From NCBI RefSeq assembly GCF_048403405.1, contig NZ_CP183129.1: a stretch of 64,000 bases of DNA. One strand, 5' to 3'. A model generated the notes under the pieces. The model was given only the letters and a program-made list of their open reading frames with translations, was not told the DNA's origin and did no database searches. This document shows, one piece after another, positions 17,895 through 48,121 of this stretch (its first letter is position 1; each line of letters opens with the position of its first letter). This stretch comes from Escherichia coli. Its GTDB lineage: Bacteria; Pseudomonadota; Gammaproteobacteria; Enterobacterales; Enterobacteriaceae. The position numbers were made by a program, and so were the translations under genes.

Positions 17895-18223
17895 CAGTTC
17901 ACCACCTGCTTAAACTCCGCGCTGAACTCAACGCGCAACATCCCGACCCGTGCAGACCACCCGGCACAGGTCACCTTTATCTGCCGGTATGCATAGGGTG
18001 GCTTCCACAAAAATGCCTTCCAGCCACCGTGCTCTGCCAGGAACGCTTCCAGATGCCGGGCCTCCTCCCGGGTCACGGAAAGCGTCACCCTGTATGTTTT
18101 CAGGTCAGCATTCAGCCCTGCCGCCATACGCTGTGAGTACCCGTCACCAAAACGCACTTCACGCACCGATGGCTGCGAGTTCACCTCCATATCCGGCTTC
18201 ACTTTCCAGCGAAAGGTTTTCAT
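17894..18223 (-). CDS. M: Tail protein M
   Basis: 109 aa MKTFRWKVKPDMEVNSQPSVREVRFGDGYSQR..., lambda gpM-like. Confidence 0.9.
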   Translation of the reverse strand: MKTFRWKVKPDMEVNSQPSVREVRFGDGYSQRMAAGLNADLKTYRVTLSVTREEARHLEAFLAEHGGWKAFLWKPPYAYRQIKVTCAGWSARVGMLRVEFSAEFKQVVN

Positions 18224-20793
18224 CGACCGCTCCCTGATAACAGACCGCCATCACGCAACTGCAGCCGGAGTTCATCCTGTGCCCCCTTGCGGGCCATGTC
18301 ATACACCGCCTTCATCAGCTGCGACCCCGCCTGTCCGTTGATACCGTCGTTCTGAATCACCACGTGATTGTTCTGATTAAAATTAATACCTTCGGCCCGC
18401 CGCATCTGCGCCGGACTTCCGGCACCGCCGACATAACCACCTTCCGCATACCCGCGCATCAGACGATACAGGTTGCCGACACCAATCCGGCTGGTTGCCT
18501 CCTTCGTGAAGACAAATTCACCACGGTGAACAATCCCCGCTGGCTCATATTTGCCGCCGGTTCCCGTAAATCCTCCGGTCGCAAAATGGAAGTTCGCCGC
18601 CGCAGCCTGAATGGCTGTACCGCCTGACGCGGATGCGCCACCACCAACAGCCCCGCCAATGGCGCTGCCGATACTTCCGACAATCCCCACCATTGCCTGC
18701 TTCAGAAAAATCTCTGTCAGCATGGACAGCACAGAACGGGTGAAACCACGCCAGTTCTGCTCACTGCCGGTCAGCATCGCCGCCATATTCTGTGCAATAC
18801 CGTCAAAGGTCTGCGTGGCCGCGTTTTTAACCTGCGAAAAACTGTCCGTCGCACTTTCCGCCCACTCGCCCCAGCCGGACTTCATCCCGGCCATCCAGCT
18901 TCCACGAAGCTGCTCCTCCGCAGACCAGGTGTTCTTCAGTGCCGATGTGGCCTTCGCCAGCGCAGCCGGATTATCACCGTACACCTCACGAAGGCGCTGC
19001 TCTTCCGACTCCCGCTGCGCCTGACGGTCAGTGAGGCCGCGGGCTTTTGCGCTGATTGCCGCCTGCTTCGCGCTCTGCTGCTGTTCAAACCGCGCCGCCT
19101 GCTGTGCCAGCTCATTCAGCCGCTTCTGGTGTTCTATCTTGTCGCCCAGCTCAGCCAGCTGGCGTTTGTACTCCAGCGTTTCTTTCTCATGGGCCAGCAG
19201 GGATTTTTCCTGCTCAGATAACTGCCGTTTCGTGGCGGCCTCTTTCAGGATCACATACTGATTTTCCGCTTCCCATAAATCCCGGCGCTGCTGGCTGATT
19301 TTCTCATTCACACCGCTGTGTTTTTCCAGCGTCCTGAGCTCGGTTTCAAGCGCCAGCATGGCTGCATGCGCCCGGTCTTCCTGGCGCTCACCGGCAGACA
19401 CCTTCACACCTGACGGCTTTTTCAGCGTCGATTCATAATCCTTTTTTGCCGACGCCATCAGCGTGTTGTAATCCGCCTGCAGGATTTTTCCGTCTTTCAG
19501 GGCCTTATTCAGCTCTTTCTGACGGGCGGTATATTTATCCAGCGGCGTCTGCAGGCGCTCATACGCCTTCTGCGCCTCTCCGGTATACTTCAGCTGTGAC
19601 GCCTCACGCTCAGCCCGGTCCCTTGCCGCCAGTTCACCGGCTTTTTCCATATCCGACTGCAGCGTGGCCGCTGCCAGACCCAGACGGGCATTTTCCCGGT
19701 CATCCCATGCCCCCTGAAGGTTCGCACGAAAAGAGGAGGTCTTTCCCCGGCGCTGGCTCCGGCTCTGGTACCACTGCCATTTTTTATCCGCCTCATCAAA
19801 TGCCTTCTGCGCACTGGCGAGCATATCCGCTGAGGATTCAGGACGACCGATATCCAGAATGGCATCCCACATCGATTTGAATGCCTTCCCTGTTTTATCC
19901 GCCCAGGTCTCCAGTGTTCCCATGTTTTCTTTCAGGCGACGGGTCTGCTCATCAAAGCCTTTCGTGGCGATATCGTTCGCCGCCTGCAATGCCCCGGCCT
20001 CGTCTCCGGAACGCTGCAGCTGTGCAACATACGCAATCTGCTCTGCCGTCACGTTACGGAACTGGCGCGCCATCGCCATCAGTCCCGACGTCGGGTCAGT
20101 GGTCAGCTTCCCGAAGGCTTCAGCGACTTTATCCACCTCCACACCGGATGCAGACGCAAAACGCGCGACACTCTGGTTGATGGCATCAAACTGTTCACCA
20201 CCACGCACACCGGCATTCATCAGGGCTGCCAGTGACTCTCTCGCCTGGTTAAACGTCAGCCCTGCTGCCTGCCCGGCTCTTGAGAGAGTCAGCATACGAT
20301 CGGCAGTCAGTCCGGACTGATTACCGGAAAGAACCAGGGTTTTATTAAACGCTGAAAGCGTGGAATCTCCCTGGTACCAGGCGTACACCAGCGCACCTGT
20401 CGCCACCGCCAGCGAGGTGACCCCGACCATCGGCAGGGTGATCGCACCGGCGAGCCCCCTGAACATGGGGATCATCCCGCCGAAGGAGTCCTTCACCTGA
20501 CCGCCCTGTTGCAGCAGGATCAGCCAGGGATTCTGACCACCGGCAAGCTGCGTGGCGATATCCGTAAACTGTGCGGGCAGGGTTCGCATGGCCGCTTTAT
20601 ACTGCCCGACGGAAATCCCGGCTTTTTGTGCAGCCAGCGCCTGGCGGCTCAGGCCCTGTTCAACAGCACTGGCGGTTTTTCTGGCGTCGGTATCCAGACC
20701 TGAAAAATGACGCCTTACCCGGCTCATCTGCTCATCGAAACGGACAGCATCCAGACTCAGGTCAATAACAAGATCACCAACCGGCTGGGACAT
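18220..20793 (-). CDS. H: Tail tape measure protein H
   Basis: 857 aa, coiled-coil-rich, lambda gpH-like; position between M and G-T. Confidence 0.9.
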   Translation of the reverse strand: MSQPVGDLVIDLSLDAVRFDEQMSRVRRHFSGLDTDARKTASAVEQGLSRQALAAQKAGISVGQYKAAMRTLPAQFTDIATQLAGGQNPWLILLQQGGQVKDSFGGMIPMFRGLAGAITLPMVGVTSLAVATGALVYAWYQGDSTLSAFNKTLVLSGNQSGLTADRMLTLSRAGQAAGLTFNQARESLAALMNAGVRGGEQFDAINQSVARFASASGVEVDKVAEAFGKLTTDPTSGLMAMARQFRNVTAEQIAYVAQLQRSGDEAGALQAANDIATKGFDEQTRRLKENMGTLETWADKTGKAFKSMWDAILDIGRPESSADMLASAQKAFDEADKKWQWYQSRSQRRGKTSSFRANLQGAWDDRENARLGLAAATLQSDMEKAGELAARDRAEREASQLKYTGEAQKAYERLQTPLDKYTARQKELNKALKDGKILQADYNTLMASAKKDYESTLKKPSGVKVSAGERQEDRAHAAMLALETELRTLEKHSGVNEKISQQRRDLWEAENQYVILKEAATKRQLSEQEKSLLAHEKETLEYKRQLAELGDKIEHQKRLNELAQQAARFEQQQSAKQAAISAKARGLTDRQAQRESEEQRLREVYGDNPAALAKATSALKNTWSAEEQLRGSWMAGMKSGWGEWAESATDSFSQVKNAATQTFDGIAQNMAAMLTGSEQNWRGFTRSVLSMLTEIFLKQAMVGIVGSIGSAIGGAVGGGASASGGTAIQAAAANFHFATGGFTGTGGKYEPAGIVHRGEFVFTKEATSRIGVGNLYRLMRGYAEGGYVGGAGSPAQMRRAEGINFNQNNHVVIQNDGINGQAGSQLMKAVYDMARKGAQDELRLQLRDGGLLSGSGR

Positions 20794-37946: not shown

Positions 37947-38023
37947 TGGCGCGTTGTACTGGATTCGAACCAGTGACCGATTGCTTAGAAGGCAATTGCT
38001 CTGTCCGGCTGAGCTAACAACGC
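37947..38023 (-). tRNA. argO: tRNA-Arg (anticodon TCT)
   Basis: Clean cloverleaf read by hand: acceptor gcgttgt/acaacgc, D-stem gctc/gagc, anticodon loop cttctaa, T-loop ttcgaat, 3' CCA encoded. Confidence 0.85.
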
Positions 38024-38036
38024 AGGATACAGATAA

Positions 38037-38113
38037 TGGACCGCCTTCGGGGACCCGAACTCCGCGCAACCAGCTTCGAAGGCTGGCGCTCTTTCCTGAT
38101 GAGCTAATGGCGG
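38037..38113 (-). tRNA. tRNA-like gene, possibly tRNA-Arg (anticodon TCG), imperfect stems
   Basis: Cloverleaf can be drawn (anticodon loop cttcgaa) but acceptor and T stems each have a mismatch and the T-loop lacks the usual A58. Confidence 0.5.
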
Positions 38114-38120
38114 TATGTGA

Positions 38121-38196
38121 TGGTGGCCCTTGCTGGATTTGAACCAGCGACCTGGCGATTATGAGTCGCTCGCTCTCACCACTGAGCTAAAGGGCC
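38121..38196 (-). tRNA. ileZ: tRNA-Ile2-type (anticodon CAT)
   Basis: ggccctttagctcagtggtgagagc...ctcataa...ggttcaaatccagcaagggccacca; closely resembles ileX-type tRNA. Confidence 0.85.
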
Positions 38197-38572: not shown

Positions 38573-38682
38573 AGCTTTTCAGACATAAAAAGGCCGCCTG
38601 ATAGCAGCCTTTTCACATTAAAATTAAGTTTTTCTTTACTCTGTAGTATGGGAAATTAGCATTCCCTACTGGGTTTATACAA

Positions 38683-39426
38683 CTAATCTGACGTCACACG
38701 CACCATTATACTTACTAAAGAAAAGTCATCATCAGGTCCGGCTCTCTCTATACGACGCAAAATACCATTAGAAAACTTCTGACTATTACTCATAGTATTT
38801 GATGTAAATCTGGGGCGTTTTTCCCAAACGTTATGAACTCCATCAGACATGATACACAGATGATACAACCCGTTAATACCAGGCAAATCTTTCCACGGGA
38901 TAAAATCACAGTCGTATTCCATATCAACATTTGAGGCTATGGCAGTCGTTAAGATATTTTTTCCCGGTTTATTCTTCAAATCTCTGGGTTTAAAAATATT
39001 CTGATCAATTAACATCTGATGTCTGGTATCGTCCTTCGTCAATTGATATGCTTTCTTTTCTCCAATGCAATACAAGCGACAATCACCAATATGACCAATA
39101 ATAATTCCGCTATCACAAACATAACAAAAGGTAAGTGTAGTAGCAGCTTTATCGAACTCATCATTAACTTCAGCTAACGACATAACTTTTCGCTTAACTT
39201 CAGCAAATACATTCGGAACTGCATCAAAAGATAAACTTGTCAATGCTGAAAGTTCAGCGATTGCCATGGATGAAGCATAACTGGCACCAGAGTATGAACC
39301 TACACCATCAGCTACGGCAAATAAGATGCCGTCTCCTACAATTTTTGGAGGAAGCAATGAATCTTCGTTGACCCTACCTGGTTCTTTTGGATACGAGAAT
39401 GATGAAGTCGCTATCAGCTGAATCAT
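38683..39426 (-). CDS. PP2C-family (PPM) Ser/Thr protein phosphatase
   Basis: 247 aa; PPM motifs NEDS, AVADGVGS, GDCRLY, IMSDGVHNV, DDDFSLV; AAGGAG RBS; AT-rich. Confidence 0.8.
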   Translation of the reverse strand: MIQLIATSSFSYPKEPGRVNEDSLLPPKIVGDGILFAVADGVGSYSGASYASSMAIAELSALTSLSFDAVPNVFAEVKRKVMSLAEVNDEFDKAATTLTFCYVCDSGIIIGHIGDCRLYCIGEKKAYQLTKDDTRHQMLIDQNIFKPRDLKNKPGKNILTTAIASNVDMEYDCDFIPWKDLPGINGLYHLCIMSDGVHNVWEKRPRFTSNTMSNSQKFSNGILRRIERAGPDDDFSLVSIMVRVTSD

Positions 39427-39529
39427 GACTCACTCCTTAAAAAAGAATGCGCAAAATCAAACGCCACATCATCTATTGTCTGATATCTATCATCTTTATC
39501 CATCCTTGTGCACTTAGCTATGATAGGCT

Positions 39530-40186
39530 TTATTTTTTATCATCTAAATTTAAGTCTTCAATTAACCGTCCCACAGCATAAACATCAGTCTTAACTGAAT
39601 ACTCTGCATTATATAAAATCTCGGGAGCCATATATCTTGTACTTCCCATACGGGTACCGATCTCGGTCAATTTAGTGGTATCCCCTTCGGGATTCGTATC
39701 TTTTACCAGACCAAAATCAGACACCTTGTATGTTCCGTCGCTAAATCGCAAAACATTAAAGGGTTTTATATCTCTGTGTAAATAGCCTTTGGCATGGATG
39801 TAAGCTACACCATCTAATACCATTTTCACTATTGAAATTTTTTGATCTGTTGTAAGAAGGTTGTTCGTTATTTCGTGCTCAAGATCACATTCTGCTTTAT
39901 CCATAATGAACCATGGATTCTCAACAAACAAATCGCACAAATAAATAGGAACAATATTGCTATGTACGCAATGTGATTGATACACAACCTCCCTTTTAAA
40001 ACGCCTTCTAAACTGCTCTATTTGCGCCAAAAGCTCTGGTTTTTCGGGTGCTAAAACCTTTCTAGCATAATCCCCGCATTCACCTTTATTGAGGTTGTAA
40101 ACCTTAACGTGTTCAACAAAGCCAAATGCCCCTCTTCCAATCAACTGAATTCGTTTTATAAAGTAATTACCGTGCTGTTCTTCCAT
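39530..40186 (-). CDS. Hanks-type Ser/Thr protein kinase (compact, ~219 aa)
   Basis: G-loop GRGAFGFV, Lys in YARKVL, catalytic loop HRDIKPFN, SDFG, MAPE, TDVYAVG; start set at MEEQ with GGTGAG RBS (track ORF extends to 40261); AT-rich. Confidence 0.8.
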   Translation of the reverse strand: MEEQHGNYFIKRIQLIGRGAFGFVEHVKVYNLNKGECGDYARKVLAPEKPELLAQIEQFRRRFKREVVYQSHCVHSNIVPIYLCDLFVENPWFIMDKAECDLEHEITNNLLTTDQKISIVKMVLDGVAYIHAKGYLHRDIKPFNVLRFSDGTYKVSDFGLVKDTNPEGDTTKLTEIGTRMGSTRYMAPEILYNAEYSVKTDVYAVGRLIEDLNLDDKK

Positions 40187-43101: not shown

Positions 43102-44208
43102 TCAAACAATCTGGAAAATATTTCTTGGATTTGTAATAGGTCTGTTGATGGAGAACAACTCACGAATTAAATCTTGGCTCAAGCCAGTTTTCATAAGAAT
43201 TCTTAGCCAGGTTGCATCATCCAGCATTTCAATCGCCTCGGCCAGCATGCCGGGTTCTTCAGGGCGCAAAAGTTCATCACCAGGTTCAACTCTCGTATAC
43301 CCTCTGGAATTAAGATGCATATAGCCAGTTCTTGCCTGTTCCTGGGTCAATAAGCCTAATGCGCTGGCTCGATAAATACACATTTTAAGGCTGATTTTCC
43401 ATCTAAGTTTAAATTCAACCAGAGCATTCCAGTCGAATTGCTTACCTCGTATTCGTGGAAATTCTTTAATGAAAGATAACCTGGGAACTAATAAGGCGCT
43501 CGAAAAGTGATCGGCTTGTGATTCCGTAAGTTTATCACCTGTCGTTATGCCCTCATGCATTACTAAATGCCCTAATTCATGACCTAAATCAGAGCGAAAT
43601 CTACATATGCTTTTTTTAACATTGTTCCTGATGATAACAGGCCTGTTATTGTGAACAGTAAAAGCATCAACACGATCATCGACTCCCGTAACATGCGCAA
43701 CGATTACCCCTAAACTCTCCGCCAATTTAACCATTGATGATATAGGGCCAAGACCTAAATTCCAGGCACGGCGACAATCTTCTGCCACTCGCTCAATATC
43801 ATTCGGAGTAAGTAATTCAGCCCCTGGGTGCTCCGGTATGTTAACGTCAGGAAATTCGATTTCACCTTCAACAGCAGAAATTATAATATTAAGAATCTCA
43901 GCCCTGGCCAATACACTATTAGTCAGCGTTTGAGTCCTGGACTTCTTACTCCGAAAATGGCAGACATCACTTTCCAGAGCGTATTTTCGTTCAGTAAAAA
44001 GAAAACTGGACTTAATCATAAGCGCTGAAGATATTAACTCAAGACATTGCTCCGATGGCCTGCACCCCTTCTCCAGTTTGCTAACGAATTGCTTTGTCTT
44101 GCCAATTTTTTCGGCTAACTCTTCACAAGAAAGCCCAACAGCCATTCTCGCTAGTTTGAGCTTATCACCCCGATACTCAGTGAAGTTATTCACCTGATGT
44201 TCCATCAC
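43102..44208 (-). CDS. XRE-family HTH regulator fused to ImmA/IrrE-type (COG2856) zinc metallopeptidase
   Basis: 368 aa; N-terminal HTH (LKLARMAVGLSCEELAEKIGKTKQFVSKLEKG), C-terminal HEXXH (HELGHLVMH); AT-rich. Confidence 0.75.
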   Translation of the reverse strand: MMEHQVNNFTEYRGDKLKLARMAVGLSCEELAEKIGKTKQFVSKLEKGCRPSEQCLELISSALMIKSSFLFTERKYALESDVCHFRSKKSRTQTLTNSVLARAEILNIIISAVEGEIEFPDVNIPEHPGAELLTPNDIERVAEDCRRAWNLGLGPISSMVKLAESLGVIVAHVTGVDDRVDAFTVHNNRPVIIRNNVKKSICRFRSDLGHELGHLVMHEGITTGDKLTESQADHFSSALLVPRLSFIKEFPRIRGKQFDWNALVEFKLRWKISLKMCIYRASALGLLTQEQARTGYMHLNSRGYTRVEPGDELLRPEEPGMLAEAIEMLDDATWLRILMKTGLSQDLIRELFSINRPITNPRNIFQIV

Positions 44209-44836
44209 TGCTCACATCCAAATCTTTATCCTTCGTACGCCGACGAAGAGGCACCTTATTAATCTCCGCTTCGTCAGGGAGTGTGTTATAATCAAGAGGC
44301 ATAAGCGGCATCGATGCTGTAGATTGATGAGAAACTATACTAATCTGAGCACCATAAGTATTAAATCCAACAAGAGCTACCTCCCAACGAGGCAGTGTGG
44401 ACTCTAATTCACCATCGCCCTCTTCGGATAAAAAAGGCTCAGCTATGACTCGCCATGTAATATCTTGCTCAGCCTCAACATCACCAAACAATGAGAGCTG
44501 CTCATACTCTACTTTATTTCGACGCAGACGATGTTTCTTTTTGGGGTTATTAATGCAATCTTTGGTAAATTGTAGCGGAACTTTATTTAAAGCAACTACA
44601 TAGTCCAACCCCTTGGAAATCATCTCAAGGCCAGGAATTGCATCTTCATTTTGAATAAGATGATTTCTGACCCAATCATAAGCCCTTACACCTTCAGACC
44701 AGTTGCTGTCTAATGCGTGCTTATGATAGTACAGCTGCTCAAGTACGTTAGCGATCTCCGCCAACAAGTGGCGAACATAGTTTTCAGCAAGATAAGGTTG
44801 AAATTCCCAACAAGGAGCTAACTGATTTTCATTCAT
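44186..44836 (-). CDS. Uncharacterized protein (216 aa), upstream partner of the XRE-peptidase gene
   Basis: ORF overlaps the downstream gene by 23 nt; TTGACA -35 element upstream; no recognisable motif. Confidence 0.55.
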   Translation of the reverse strand: MNENQLAPCWEFQPYLAENYVRHLLAEIANVLEQLYYHKHALDSNWSEGVRAYDWVRNHLIQNEDAIPGLEMISKGLDYVVALNKVPLQFTKDCINNPKKKHRLRRNKVEYEQLSLFGDVEAEQDITWRVIAEPFLSEEGDGELESTLPRWEVALVGFNTYGAQISIVSHQSTASMPLMPLDYNTLPDEAEINKVPLRRRTKDKDLDVSSDGTSGE

Positions 44837-45001: not shown

Positions 45002-45157
45002 TTACTCCTCAGGTTCGTAAGCTGTGAAGACAGCGACCTCCGTCTGGCCGGTTCGGATTCGTACCTCGCAGAGGTCTTTCCTCGTTACCAGTGCCGTCAC
45101 AATGACGGTTAAACAGATGACGATCAGGGCGATTAACATCGCCTTTTGCTGCTTCAT
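45002..45157 (-). CDS. hokD: Hok/Gef-family type I toxin (HokD/RelF-like, 51 aa)
   Basis: MKQQKAMLIALIVICLTVIVTALVTRKDLCEVRIRTGQTEVAVFTAYEPEE matches HokD; track ORF has an in-frame upstream extension. Confidence 0.85.
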   Translation of the reverse strand: MKQQKAMLIALIVICLTVIVTALVTRKDLCEVRIRTGQTEVAVFTAYEPEE

Positions 45158-45394
45158 AGCCTGCTTCCCCTTGCCTTTCGGCACGTAAGAGGCTAACCTA
45201 CATTTGTGAGACATAGATTGGGCCTCAGATTAATGTTAAGCGTCTTGCAGGACGCGAAATGTTAACTGGGGCTTTTCTCTATCTGCCTTTCAGTGTTCAT
45301 GCCTGAGACAGATAGCCTCAAGCACCCGCAGCCATTCTACTTAACTCACGTCACCTCGCCAATATGAAATCAATCAGAAAGGTGATCCATAAAA

Positions 45395-46081
45395 TCACTC
45401 CTTCTCTTCTTTTCCGTAGTGGAGTTGGCCAATTTTGATAAGAGGGCGTCCCTGAGATTTGCGGTGTAGATTGGTATCGCGCAGAGAATACACACAGCCA
45501 CAATATTCCTGCTGATAGAATTTTTCGCGCTTGCTGATTTCAATCATACGGGACGAGCCGCCCTGCTTGCGCCAGTTATAATCCCAGTACACCATACCCG
45601 GATAATGCGCAACAGCTCGCCGCCCACACTCGTTAACCTGCTGCATATTTTTCCAGCGTGAAATGCCCAGTGAACTGCTGATCACACTGAAACCATTTTC
45701 AGCAGCGTACAACGCTGTCCGCTCAAAACGCATGTCAAAACACATGGTACAACGGATCCCCCTCTCAGGCTCCCATTCCATTCCTTTGGCACGTTCAAAC
45801 CAGTTGTCGGTGTCGTAATCAGCATCGATAAACGGCACGCCGTGTTGTTCAGCAAAGCGAATATTTTCATCCTTACGAATTAAATACTCTTTCTGAGGAT
45901 GAATGTTCGGGTTGTAGAAAAAGATGGTGTAGTCGATTCCCGAGGCCTGAAGCGCCTCCATCACTTCACCGGAACATGGAGCACAGCAAGAGTGCAGTAG
46001 TAGTTTGTTTGCCCCGTTTGGGAGCTCCAATTTAGGCCGTTTGAAATCAGCAATAGTCATAAATATTTTTATTGGGGTCAT
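45395..46081 (-). CDS. QueH-like (DUF208) putative epoxyqueuosine reductase
   Basis: Conserved Cys motifs [12 protein letters not shown] and YCGCVYS; start ambiguous (M at 46081 or 46060); family call from memory. Confidence 0.55.
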
Positions 46082-46135
46082 GAAAATAGCACAGAGTGTA
46101 GCATCAGAGTGTACTGACCCCAAAAAGTTGGACAG

Positions 46136-46987
46136 TTAAACACGAGGCATATAGGTCTGATTCCGATATTCAATTGGAGTCAGACCTTTTAATTTCAGGC
46201 TAATTCTTCTGCTGTTGTAGTATTCAATATATTCCGTAACAGCATCCTTCAGTTCGCTTATATTACTGAACTCATCAAGATAAAAACACTCCGACTTTAA
46301 GGTTCCAAAGAAACACTCCACCACAGCATTATCCAGACAATTGCCTTTTCTGGACATGCTTTGTTTAATACCATGTTCTTTAAGGATATTTTGATATCTT
46401 CTCATACGATACTGCCATCCCTGGTCAGAGTGCAGAACAGGATGCTCGTGAGGATTAAGCTTTTTGAATGCCTGATCGAGCATATTCTCAACCATGTTCA
46501 TCACTGGTCTTTCCGAAAGGCTGTAAGAAATAACTTCGTTGTTGAAGAGATCTATTACTGGAGACAAATACAGCTTGCGCCCATTGACTGCAAATTCAGT
46601 AACATCGGTAACCCACTTCTCGTTTGGCCGCGTAGCCTTGAAATCTCTTTGGAGAACATTAGGGGCGGTTTGCCCTACCTCTCCTCTGTAAGAGCGGTAT
46701 CGCTTGACCTTAATCGCTGCTTTAAGTGAGAGGGTTCCCATCAGGCGCTGAACAGCTTTATGGTTAATCTGTTTCCCTTCTCGATGAAGAGACAGCGTTA
46801 CCCTACGGTATCCGTATCGGCCTCTATTCTCGTGATAAATCTCACTAATACGCTTTTTAACGTCCGCATACTTGTCAGGCTTGCTGAGAGCCTTTAGATG
46901 ATAATAAAACGTACTGCGCGGTATCTCCGCAGCCCTGAGAAGCTCATCAAGAGGATAAAACTGCCTTAGCTCGTTGAGTACTTTCAC
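46136..46987 (-). CDS. insK: IS150 transposase OrfB (DDE domain)
   Basis: 283 aa; ...[48 protein letters not shown]... Confidence 0.9.
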
Positions 46988-47505
46988 TTTTTCGTGGGAT
47001 GAGCTAAGGCTTTCAGCTTTTTTAGATACATAAGCCGCGTTTCAAGAAATCGAACTTGCCTTTCAAGATCCTCAATGCGTCGGTCTTTTGACAGCTCCAA
47101 TGCTGATGCCGCTTTTTCTGGATCAACTGATATTGCAATGTTTCTTTTGGTGCCAATCTTGAGCGCGCGTAAACCAGCTTCTCCGCGCTCTTCATAGACC
47201 TTCAGCCACCTGGCTACAGAACCACTACCAGCAAGCATAAAGTGAGCAGCAGCCTGATTAAGGGACATGTGCTGCTCGATCACAGCTTTCACGACCTTAA
47301 TACGCAACTCTGGATCAGCACTAACGCCTTTAGGTTTGGGAATTAAACCTTTTTCTCCATGTTTTTCATAGAGGGCAACCCATGTCCTGACCTGGGTTCG
47401 GGGGACACCAAAACGTGCCGAGATGATCCTGTAACCATCATCAGTTGTGAAGTAGTGATTCACGACTTCAAGGCGCTTTTCAAAAGGGTATTTTGGCTTT
47501 GACAT
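46984..47505 (-). CDS. insJ: IS150 transposase OrfA (HTH)
   Basis: 173 aa MSKPKYPFEKRLEVVNHYFTTDDGYRIISARFGVPRTQVRTWVALYEKHG...; 4 nt overlap with orfB. Confidence 0.9.
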   Translation of the reverse strand: MSKPKYPFEKRLEVVNHYFTTDDGYRIISARFGVPRTQVRTWVALYEKHGEKGLIPKPKGVSADPELRIKVVKAVIEQHMSLNQAAAHFMLAGSGSVARWLKVYEERGEAGLRALKIGTKRNIAISVDPEKAASALELSKDRRIEDLERQVRFLETRLMYLKKLKALAHPTKK

Positions 47506-47680
47506 ATTAGGGGCTATTCCATTTCATCGTCCAACAAAATGGGTGCAGTACAGAGCAGGGCTATCGGGAATATATGTCTAAATCTGGTAATATCTGGTTT
47601 TGACGCAAAGCGGACAACCACGCTGGCTCTACCCTGCGCCATGAAAATGTCAATTCACATCTGAACTAATGCTCTTTAAT

Positions 47681-48121
47681 CTAGTAACGTCTAAAATACC
47701 TAACATTTCCTTGATAAAATGCCAGTACACGCTGCATAGCTTCGCTCTTCCGGCACTCGCGACAGATTATATTCAGGCGCCTGTCGTAGCGGCGTATTTC
47801 GCCGTCTGGTAACGACCAGATAAGGTCCGGATCAACCACTGCAGGTTTCTTCACCTTTGCCCTTGAGAGTTTTTTGCGAGCATTTTGCCAGTCCTTACGC
47901 GCCTGTTCAGACGGGAATAACCCGTAACCAGAGTTGTATACATCGCCACTGGCAACCAGCTCTCTGGCGAGAACACTCATCAGATATCTTGTCGCACCTG
48001 TCTTGGCTTCCAGTTGCCGCAACGTCTCGCGACCGCTCAGACGTACAAGTTCAACAACCTGCCCTTTAATTTTTTCCCGCTCTTCTTGTGTAAATACTTT
48101 TGCCATAAGCGCCTCCGGCAA
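47681..48121 (-). CDS. Hypothetical phage protein
   Basis: 146 aa ORF; C-terminal Cys pair (CRECRK). Confidence 0.4.
   Translation of the reverse strand: MPEALMAKVFTQEEREKIKGQVVELVRLSGRETLRQLEAKTGATRYLMSVLARELVASGDVYNSGYGLFPSEQARKDWQNARKKLSRAKVKKPAVVDPDLIWSLPDGEIRRYDRRLNIICRECRKSEAMQRVLAFYQGNVRYFRRY

Follow-up and report, generated by a model that had tools for sequence, protein, structure and literature searches.

The iron-sulfur enzyme QueH, an epoxyqueuosine reductase that works independently of cobalamin, makes queuosine (Q) out of epoxyqueuosine (oQ) at position 34 of the tRNAs for Asn, Asp, His and Tyr. This study concerns a queH gene carried by a prophage of Escherichia coli, with the insertion sequence IS150 just upstream of it. 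The locus lies in a 64,000-nucleotide stretch of contig NZ_CP183129.1 (NCBI RefSeq assembly GCF_048403405.1), hereafter called the window, from whose first letter all positions are counted. De novo synthesis of cobalamin (vitamin B12) is impossible in E. coli; the organism depends on imported cobalamin or corrinoid precursors, for which it competes in the gut. Cobamide-dependent oQ reduction in E. coli was reportedly the subject of work by Frey et al. in 1988, whose title names it. QueH and the QueG of E. coli are non-orthologous enzymes from unrelated families that carry out the same last step, the conversion of oQ34-tRNA to Q34-tRNA (PMC5372724, PMC12632869). QueG is a cobalamin/[4Fe-4S] enzyme and is listed among the cobamide-dependent enzymes of E. 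coli (PMC5175355, PMC11841063); it needs a cobamide and two [4Fe-4S] clusters, whereas an iron dependence has been described for QueH (PMC9508795).

Phages are known to carry other genes of the queuosine/archaeosine pathway, including FolE, QueC/D/E and DpdA, which form 7-deazaguanine systems. The prophage queH resembles these genes in being phage-carried and in deriving from the same pathway. However, the known systems modify phage DNA and require the DpdA transglycosylase, whereas the prophage queH stands alone and has host tRNA as its only plausible substrate. In a survey of viral 7-deazaguanine genes, homologs of QueA, QueG and QueH were absent from the viruses analysed (PMC6884629). Our literature search on QueH or epoxyqueuosine reductase in combination with phage or prophage, over 8 million searchable papers, returned no paper describing a phage-borne QueH, and it gave no account of any queuosine-specific enzyme borne by a phage. 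The gene is therefore a known enzyme, already named in RefSeq, in a phage context that is undescribed but visible in databases. Unlike the chromosomal QueH of other bacteria, it is phage-encoded, lies outside the housekeeping locus, and resides in a host that already has QueG. We consider it about 80% probable that it is a genuine queH carried as stand-alone cargo, most likely adding a B12-independent route to Q, and that the IS150 insertion is recent, strain-specific, and neutral or reducing in its effect.

Identity and start of the queH gene

On sequence evidence, the open reading frame (ORF) is a genuine, intact and full-length queH. The protein matched the Pfam family PF02677 (QueH) with an E value of 1.2e-65 over model positions 1-174 of 175, which is the full length of the domain. 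A phmmer search against the PDB matched the QueH of Thermotoga maritima (E 8e-22), and the only solved structures matched were this enzyme and its mutants (about 1e-21). An AlphaFold2 model built with 40 diverse homologs as input reached a mean predicted local distance difference test score (pLDDT) of 94.1 and a predicted template modelling score (pTM) of 0.90. When this model was compared with the PDB by Foldseek, the best five matches were all QueH, with a root-mean-square deviation (rmsd) of 1.2 Å and a target-normalised TM score of 0.92 to T. maritima QueH 7lc5 (E 1e-14). After these came TtuA-type tRNA thiolases and further enzymes of the alpha-hydrolase fold, ten orders of magnitude weaker (E 1e-4). 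The prophage protein is thus predicted to adopt the QueH fold, which resembles that of the adenine-nucleotide alpha-hydrolases.

The residues expected of the family are also in place. Seven cysteines (C25, C26, C29, C104, C107, C187 and C189 in the numbering of the 221-residue form) are all present and are invariant in a 40-sequence alignment, and 62 representatives clustered at 50% gave the same result. They form the motifs CCxxC, CxxC and CxC, whose cysteines are ligands for a [4Fe-4S] cluster and an adjacent iron. Nine further positions are invariant or nearly so in the family alignments, and all of them are present in the prophage protein; the invariant non-cysteine residues N, Y, R, E, R, K and Q are retained. 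In its full-length domain, predicted fold, cysteine set and other invariant residues, the protein therefore resembles T. maritima QueH. It differs in having Cys where the T. maritima enzyme has Asp13, Cys being the family majority (55 of the 62 representatives), and in a basic C-terminal extension, about 20 residues long, beyond the T. maritima-aligned region, which is common to the QueH of Providencia and Photorhabdus. The preliminary description of this DNA had placed the protein in the QueH/DUF208 family and pointed to its HSCCAPC and CGC motifs. Both motifs were found and are part of the family-conserved metal-ligand cysteines. The description had also named an assignment to an unrelated family as the outcome that would speak against it; the Pfam and PDB searches gave QueH, and sequence, conserved residues and predicted fold agree.

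Two profile collections behaved differently. The NCBIfam scan returned zero matches, though RefSeq names the gene QueH, and is uninformative. PHROG family 3217, labelled 'unknown function', matched residues 41-228 of the 228-residue form; its profile begins at Met41 and misses the CCAPC motif. Because of this truncation and this label, phage annotation pipelines miss the identity of QueH. Several database representatives of QueH also begin at Met41.

The queH ORF contains two in-frame ATG codons, the first at 46081 (228 aa) and the second at 46060 (221 aa). In 59 close homologs the N-terminus lies 20-22 residues ahead of HSCCAPC, the identical gene in VR50 is annotated in RefSeq with 221 aa, and the seven codons between the two ATGs are non-synonymously changed in phage HannyBb while the codons downstream are conserved. 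These observations support the second ATG, at 46060, as the probable true start. The protein of about 229 aa described earlier corresponds to the minus-strand ORF ending at 45395, which has 228 aa from its first ATG, and the form supported by homology is the shorter one. The TTG at 46123, with which a mechanical ORF list opened the frame, is an artefact, as it sits within IS150.

Relatives, selection and proposed role

The closest proteins in large databases are named QueH and share 80-86% identity with the prophage protein. They come from Erwinia, Providencia, Proteus, Photorhabdus, Gibbsiella, Sodalis and other Enterobacterales. The chromosomal queH of Providencia sits among tmcA, purC and bamC, and that of an Erwinia-like genome lies between purL and glrK. 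Such identity to QueH proteins encoded at core chromosomal loci indicates that the phage gene is an ortholog of the housekeeping enzyme rather than a divergent paralog. Synonymous sites are saturated between the phage queH and the Providencia and Photorhabdus genes, so its capture by phage was not recent.

In E. coli, queH is an accessory, prophage-borne gene, found in 994 of 5,426 complete genomes (18%) and almost always in single copy. In contrast, queG is core, being present in 5,425 of the same genomes, so that at least 993 of the 994 queH carriers have both enzymes. All E. coli copies among the matches listed bear the RefSeq name 'epoxyqueuosine reductase QueH'. The earlier statement that E. 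coli normally lacks this enzyme is true for K-12, but these carriers limit it for the species. Beyond bacterial genomes, the isolated phage HannyBb carries queH at 96.8% identity, annotated as a hypothetical protein, and 185 viral contigs in IMG/VR contain the gene, the encoded protein being identical in at least 80.

Among five prophage and phage queH alleles, the ratio of non-synonymous to synonymous substitution (dN/dS) was 0.04-0.09 at dS values of up to 0.46. At the sequence level, this shows long-term purifying selection on queH while it was phage-borne. The result bears on the possibility that queH serves no function on the prophage and is either carried along neutrally or decaying, with IS150 as one step of prophage decay. 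Gene relics do occur nearby, namely a methyltransferase fragment directly upstream and other pseudogenes in the VR50 annotation, IS insertion commonly degrades prophages, and neither a promoter nor a Shine-Dalgarno motif is evident. However, selection of this strength is hard to square with decay, the reading frame is unbroken in every copy examined, the gene persists in 994 genomes and in an isolated, presumably viable phage, and IS150 left the coding sequence uninterrupted. We therefore judge decay or neutrality to be highly improbable, and return to a queH maintained by selection as cargo.

As to what the enzyme would act on, the annotation of the 99.9%-identical VR50 prophage contains no other que, tgt, dpdA, 7-deazaguanine or preQ0-synthesis gene. 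The substrate must therefore be host oQ-tRNA made by the host Tgt and QueA. In the proposed mechanism, phage QueH would act on this oQ-tRNA as stand-alone cargo and would give the host a second, cobalamin-independent route to Q on its four tRNAs with GUN anticodons. This second route would be active during phage development and, if the gene is transcribed in the lysogen, in the host as well. In Shewanella, phage infection upregulated queG as the sole gene of the Q pathway, and the Q/oQ ratio rose (2026 preprint, 10.64898/2026.03.05.709803), which makes a phage-phase role for QueH plausible.

The prophage also carries three tRNA genes, as the preliminary description had noticed, and a possible part of queH in tRNA modification had been tied to them. 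Queuosine, which takes the place of G34, is confined to tRNAs with GUN anticodons (Asn, Asp, His and Tyr; PMC9508795). The prophage anticodons UCU, UCG and CAU fall outside this set and so are not QueH substrates; the functional link between queH and the prophage tRNAs was rejected for this reason.

Several results weigh against the proposed role. The share of NAU among Asn, Asp, His and Tyr codons was 0.59 in the early and 0.55 in the late prophage genes and 0.60 in the chromosomal flanks; with NAU use no higher in the prophage than in the host flanks, codon use gave no sign of a phage-specific need for Q. No sigma-70-like promoter was picked up ahead of queH by a consensus scan, neither ATG 46060 nor ATG 46081 has a visible Shine-Dalgarno motif before it, and expression of queH may be confined to lytic growth. 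The benefit of B12-independence, moreover, is deduced from what is known of the cofactors that QueG and QueH require.

The IS150 insertion and queH transcription

The element upstream of queH is identical at 1443 of 1443 positions to the annotated IS150 copy of K-12 MG1655. Its insA and insB genes are joined by an A6G programmed frameshift site at IS position 530, a feature that RefSeq also remarks on ('programmed frameshift') for the IS150 transposase in SCZE5, and the transposase matched an IS3-family hidden Markov model with an E value of 1e-104. The start of the element, 46110, agrees with the preliminary description, which had put its end at 47541; the element extends 11 bp further (Table 1). 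The 3-bp GAG duplication described earlier is present at both ends, and in silico removal of IS150 together with one GAG copy restored exactly the VR50 sequence, which represents the empty site. IS150 has the same orientation as queH. The distance of about 30 bp given earlier fits the first ATG (28 bp from the end of the element), while the ATG supported by homology is 49 bp away.

This insertion was found at the queH upstream site in 0 of 5,426 complete E. coli genomes, about 26 of which hold the same prophage at 99.9% identity with no IS150 at the site. The IS150-queH junction was likewise found in 0 of 96 fetched loci, including 80 IMG/VR contigs with identical queH. Judged by its 100% identity to the K-12 copy and its absence from these other genomes and loci, the insertion is a recent, strain-specific simple transposition. 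It is an ordinary event of its kind.

IS150 has been met elsewhere in similar surroundings. The MG1655 copy (locus L015, 1634-3076) sits inside hokA/sokA, and the present copy lies about 0.9 kb from hokD. In SCZE5, ECJXMCRH7 and XH993, a related prophage has another IS150 within this cargo region. The position of IS150 near hok genes or in the cargo region could be a coincidence or a regional target preference.

The insertion left queH with a short leader that contains TACACT, a weak -10-like hexamer. In a crude consensus scan of the queH strand, no promoter-like site reached 9/12 in either the empty site or the IS150 junction. A relaxed scan gave two native sites of 8/12, located 62 and 82 nt before the ATG in the displaced upstream segment; these were the only 8/12 matches. 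Both lie beyond the insertion point, and IS150 has shifted them 1.4 kb away. At the junction itself, the native 7/12 site TTCCCG-N18-TACACT is replaced by a hybrid 7/12 site, TTGGGG-N17-TACACT, the best hybrid candidate, which lies 34 nt upstream of the ATG and takes its -35-like TTGGGG from the right end of IS150. The same kind of scan, equally crude, found no terminator-like site after queH and none on the queH strand within IS150. A phage moron, a cargo gene expressed from the prophage, would bring a promoter and a terminator of its own; for queH these scans gave promoter candidates of 7-8/12 and no terminator candidate. The sole terminator-like hairpin in IS150 (46153-46187, plus strand) has a 15-bp stem and a T-run, lies in the 3' end of insB, and is oriented against transcription entering IS150 from the queH side. 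Because this hairpin faces the other way, transcription begun in the early operon or at the transposase promoter could read through into queH.

The insertion could in principle activate queH, through a hybrid promoter made of an IS -35 and a flanking -10 or through an outward IS promoter, and thereby cause a gene of the lytic phase to be constitutively expressed in the lysogen. As in known IS3-family insertions upstream of genes, IS150 is co-oriented with queH, lies 49 bp from its start and brings a -35-like TTGGGG in its right end; the ends of IS3-family elements often bear -35 boxes that build hybrid promoters (PMC12095673), and transposase-promoter read-through would meet no queH-strand terminator inside the element. 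However, the hybrid site at 7/12 is no better than the native one. Unlike in activating IS3-family insertions, no sign of activation is seen here, and the wild-type 150-bp ends of IS150 were picked for a massively parallel reporter study on the ground that no promoter activity could be detected in them (PMC12095673). The insertion is also unique to one strain, nothing suggests repeated selection for it, and nothing else at this locus supports activation. On balance, we think activation unlikely.

The preferred reading of the insertion is a different one. IS150 severs queH from its native upstream DNA, and any transcript of the gene would now have to arise by read-through that starts in the early operon or at the IS150 transposase promoter, or else at a weak hybrid promoter. 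The net effect on queH is most likely neutral or reduced expression rather than activation. IS150 may possibly also exert polarity on downstream early genes, Q included.

Prophage neighbourhood and wider meaning

The window contains a complete lambda-like prophage integrated at ompW, beside the trp operon, which bears out the earlier placement of queH on a prophage. On the minus strand, its early part encodes repressor and Cro-like proteins, YdaT, O-like and P replication genes, DUF1627 and DUF977, followed by IS150 and queH. After queH come hokD, a gene pair matching RmrT and RmrA, DUF968, RusA, the Q antiterminator, a kinase/phosphatase pair, three tRNAs, and the lysis and structural genes. 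queH thus belongs to the early-right operon and opens a variable cargo region that is flanked by the replication genes and the Q antiterminator. The coordinates of the locus are given in Table 1.

Table 1. Positions in the window of queH, IS150 and associated prophage features
Feature	Position (strand)	Description	Basis
queH coding sequence	45395..46060 (-)	221 aa + stop	Start from homology; Pfam, PDB, cysteines, AlphaFold2
queH leader left after IS150 insertion	46061..46109 (-)	49 nt	Sequence and promoter scoring
Target-site duplication, copy on the side of the right inverted repeat	46107..46109	GAG	
IS150, complete	46110..47552 (-)	1443 bp; imperfect terminal inverted repeats; right inverted repeat abuts queH	
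IS150 insB (orfB)	46136..46987 (-)	Catalytic part of the transposase	
IS150 insA (orfA)	46984..47505 (-)	173 aa	
Target-site duplication, copy on the side of the left inverted repeat	47553..47555	GAG	
Native queH upstream remnant, displaced by IS150	47556..47680 (-)	3' relic of a DNA methyltransferase ORF	Alignment; HannyBb and MIN14 annotations
DUF977 (Ren-like) gene	47681..48106 (-)	Last gene of the early-right replication block	RefSeq annotation of VR50, SCZE5, GF47, MIN14 and Z1832
Prophage tRNA cluster, three genes	37947..38196 (-)	Arg(UCU), Arg(UCG), CAU (Ile2/Met; RefSeq Ile)	ARAGORN; VR50 annotation

In every E. coli prophage copy examined, DUF977 lies immediately upstream of queH. The genes after queH vary between prophages, with an NgoMIV restriction-modification system in an O157:H7 strain and a KwaB-like protein in SCZE5. 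This variable neighbourhood raises the question of whether the phage QueH-like protein has been recruited for a role other than tRNA modification, such as phage DNA modification or countering host defence. The gene sits at a hot spot of cargo with defence-related genes, which here are hokD and a RosmerTA-like pair and which elsewhere, at equivalent positions, are the restriction-modification system and the KwaB-like protein just named; 7-deazaguanine chemistry is also used to modify DNA in other phages (PMC6884629). However, QueH is not part of the known phage deazaguanine systems described in the same survey (PMC6884629), and an alternative substrate would have no source on the prophage, which lacks DpdA/TGT-like and preQ0-synthesis genes. 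The protein is 80-86% identical to chromosomal housekeeping QueH and conserves all catalytic residues. A specific defence role for QueH was rejected, as the protein matched none of the PADLOC defence-protein models, while its neighbours did match RmrT and RmrA. We give recruitment to another function very little credence, and tRNA modification by a genuine QueH remains the preferred reading.

Other features of the region were noted. The two genes just downstream of hokD (43102-44836, minus strand) gave the PADLOC matches to RmrT (E 5e-25) and RmrA (E 6e-105), pointing to a RosmerTA-like anti-phage toxin-antitoxin pair on the prophage; RefSeq labels them 'hypothetical protein' and 'helix-turn-helix domain-containing protein'. 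The type I toxin gene hokD (45002-45214, minus strand) lies directly downstream of queH, and the gap between the two contains a sigma-70-like site, TTGGCG-N17-TAGAAT (45362-45334, minus strand), that probably serves the hok/mok transcript. On the other side of queH, about 125 bp of upstream DNA is conserved along with the gene across differing phage contexts. It is the 3' end of a degraded ORF that the HannyBb annotation lists as a 'DNA methyltransferase' of 68 aa and the MIN14 annotation as 'methyltransferase, incomplete' (loci L003, 5741-5947, and L010, 5757-5942). According to the VR50 RefSeq annotation, a Ser/Thr phosphatase of the PP2C family has a Ser/Thr protein kinase as its neighbour at about 38682-40186 (minus strand), between the Q antiterminator and the tRNAs. 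The tape-measure gene is annotated as frameshifted in VR50 (locus L016, 12497-15070) and is a single unbroken ORF of 857 aa in the window (18220-20793).

In sum, the prophage gene is best explained as a queH that temperate coliphages carry as cargo, and the IS150 insertion is valuable mainly as a natural experiment on queH transcription. The finding exposes an annotation gap, in which the PHROG family is labelled 'unknown function' and the HannyBb gene 'hypothetical protein'. We put forward, as a tentative proposal that falls somewhat short of even odds, that temperate coliphages carry a tRNA-modification enzyme and that prophage QueH uncouples the last step of Q formation from B12 in about one fifth of E. 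coli strains, altering the Q/oQ ratio and the decoding of NAU and NAC codons in B12-poor niches or during phage development. Queuosine has been linked in published work to biofilm formation, virulence, and metal and oxidative stress. Nothing in the system is mechanistically strange; the 18% prevalence of queH and the strong selection on it merit a bench test by specialists in queuosine or phage cargo. Should the prophage enzyme be active, Q could be completed without cobalamin in many E. coli, O157:H7 and extraintestinal pathogenic strains among them. The queuosine status of tRNA would then be a trait changeable by lysogeny, and a tRNA-modification enzyme would join the auxiliary genes of phages.

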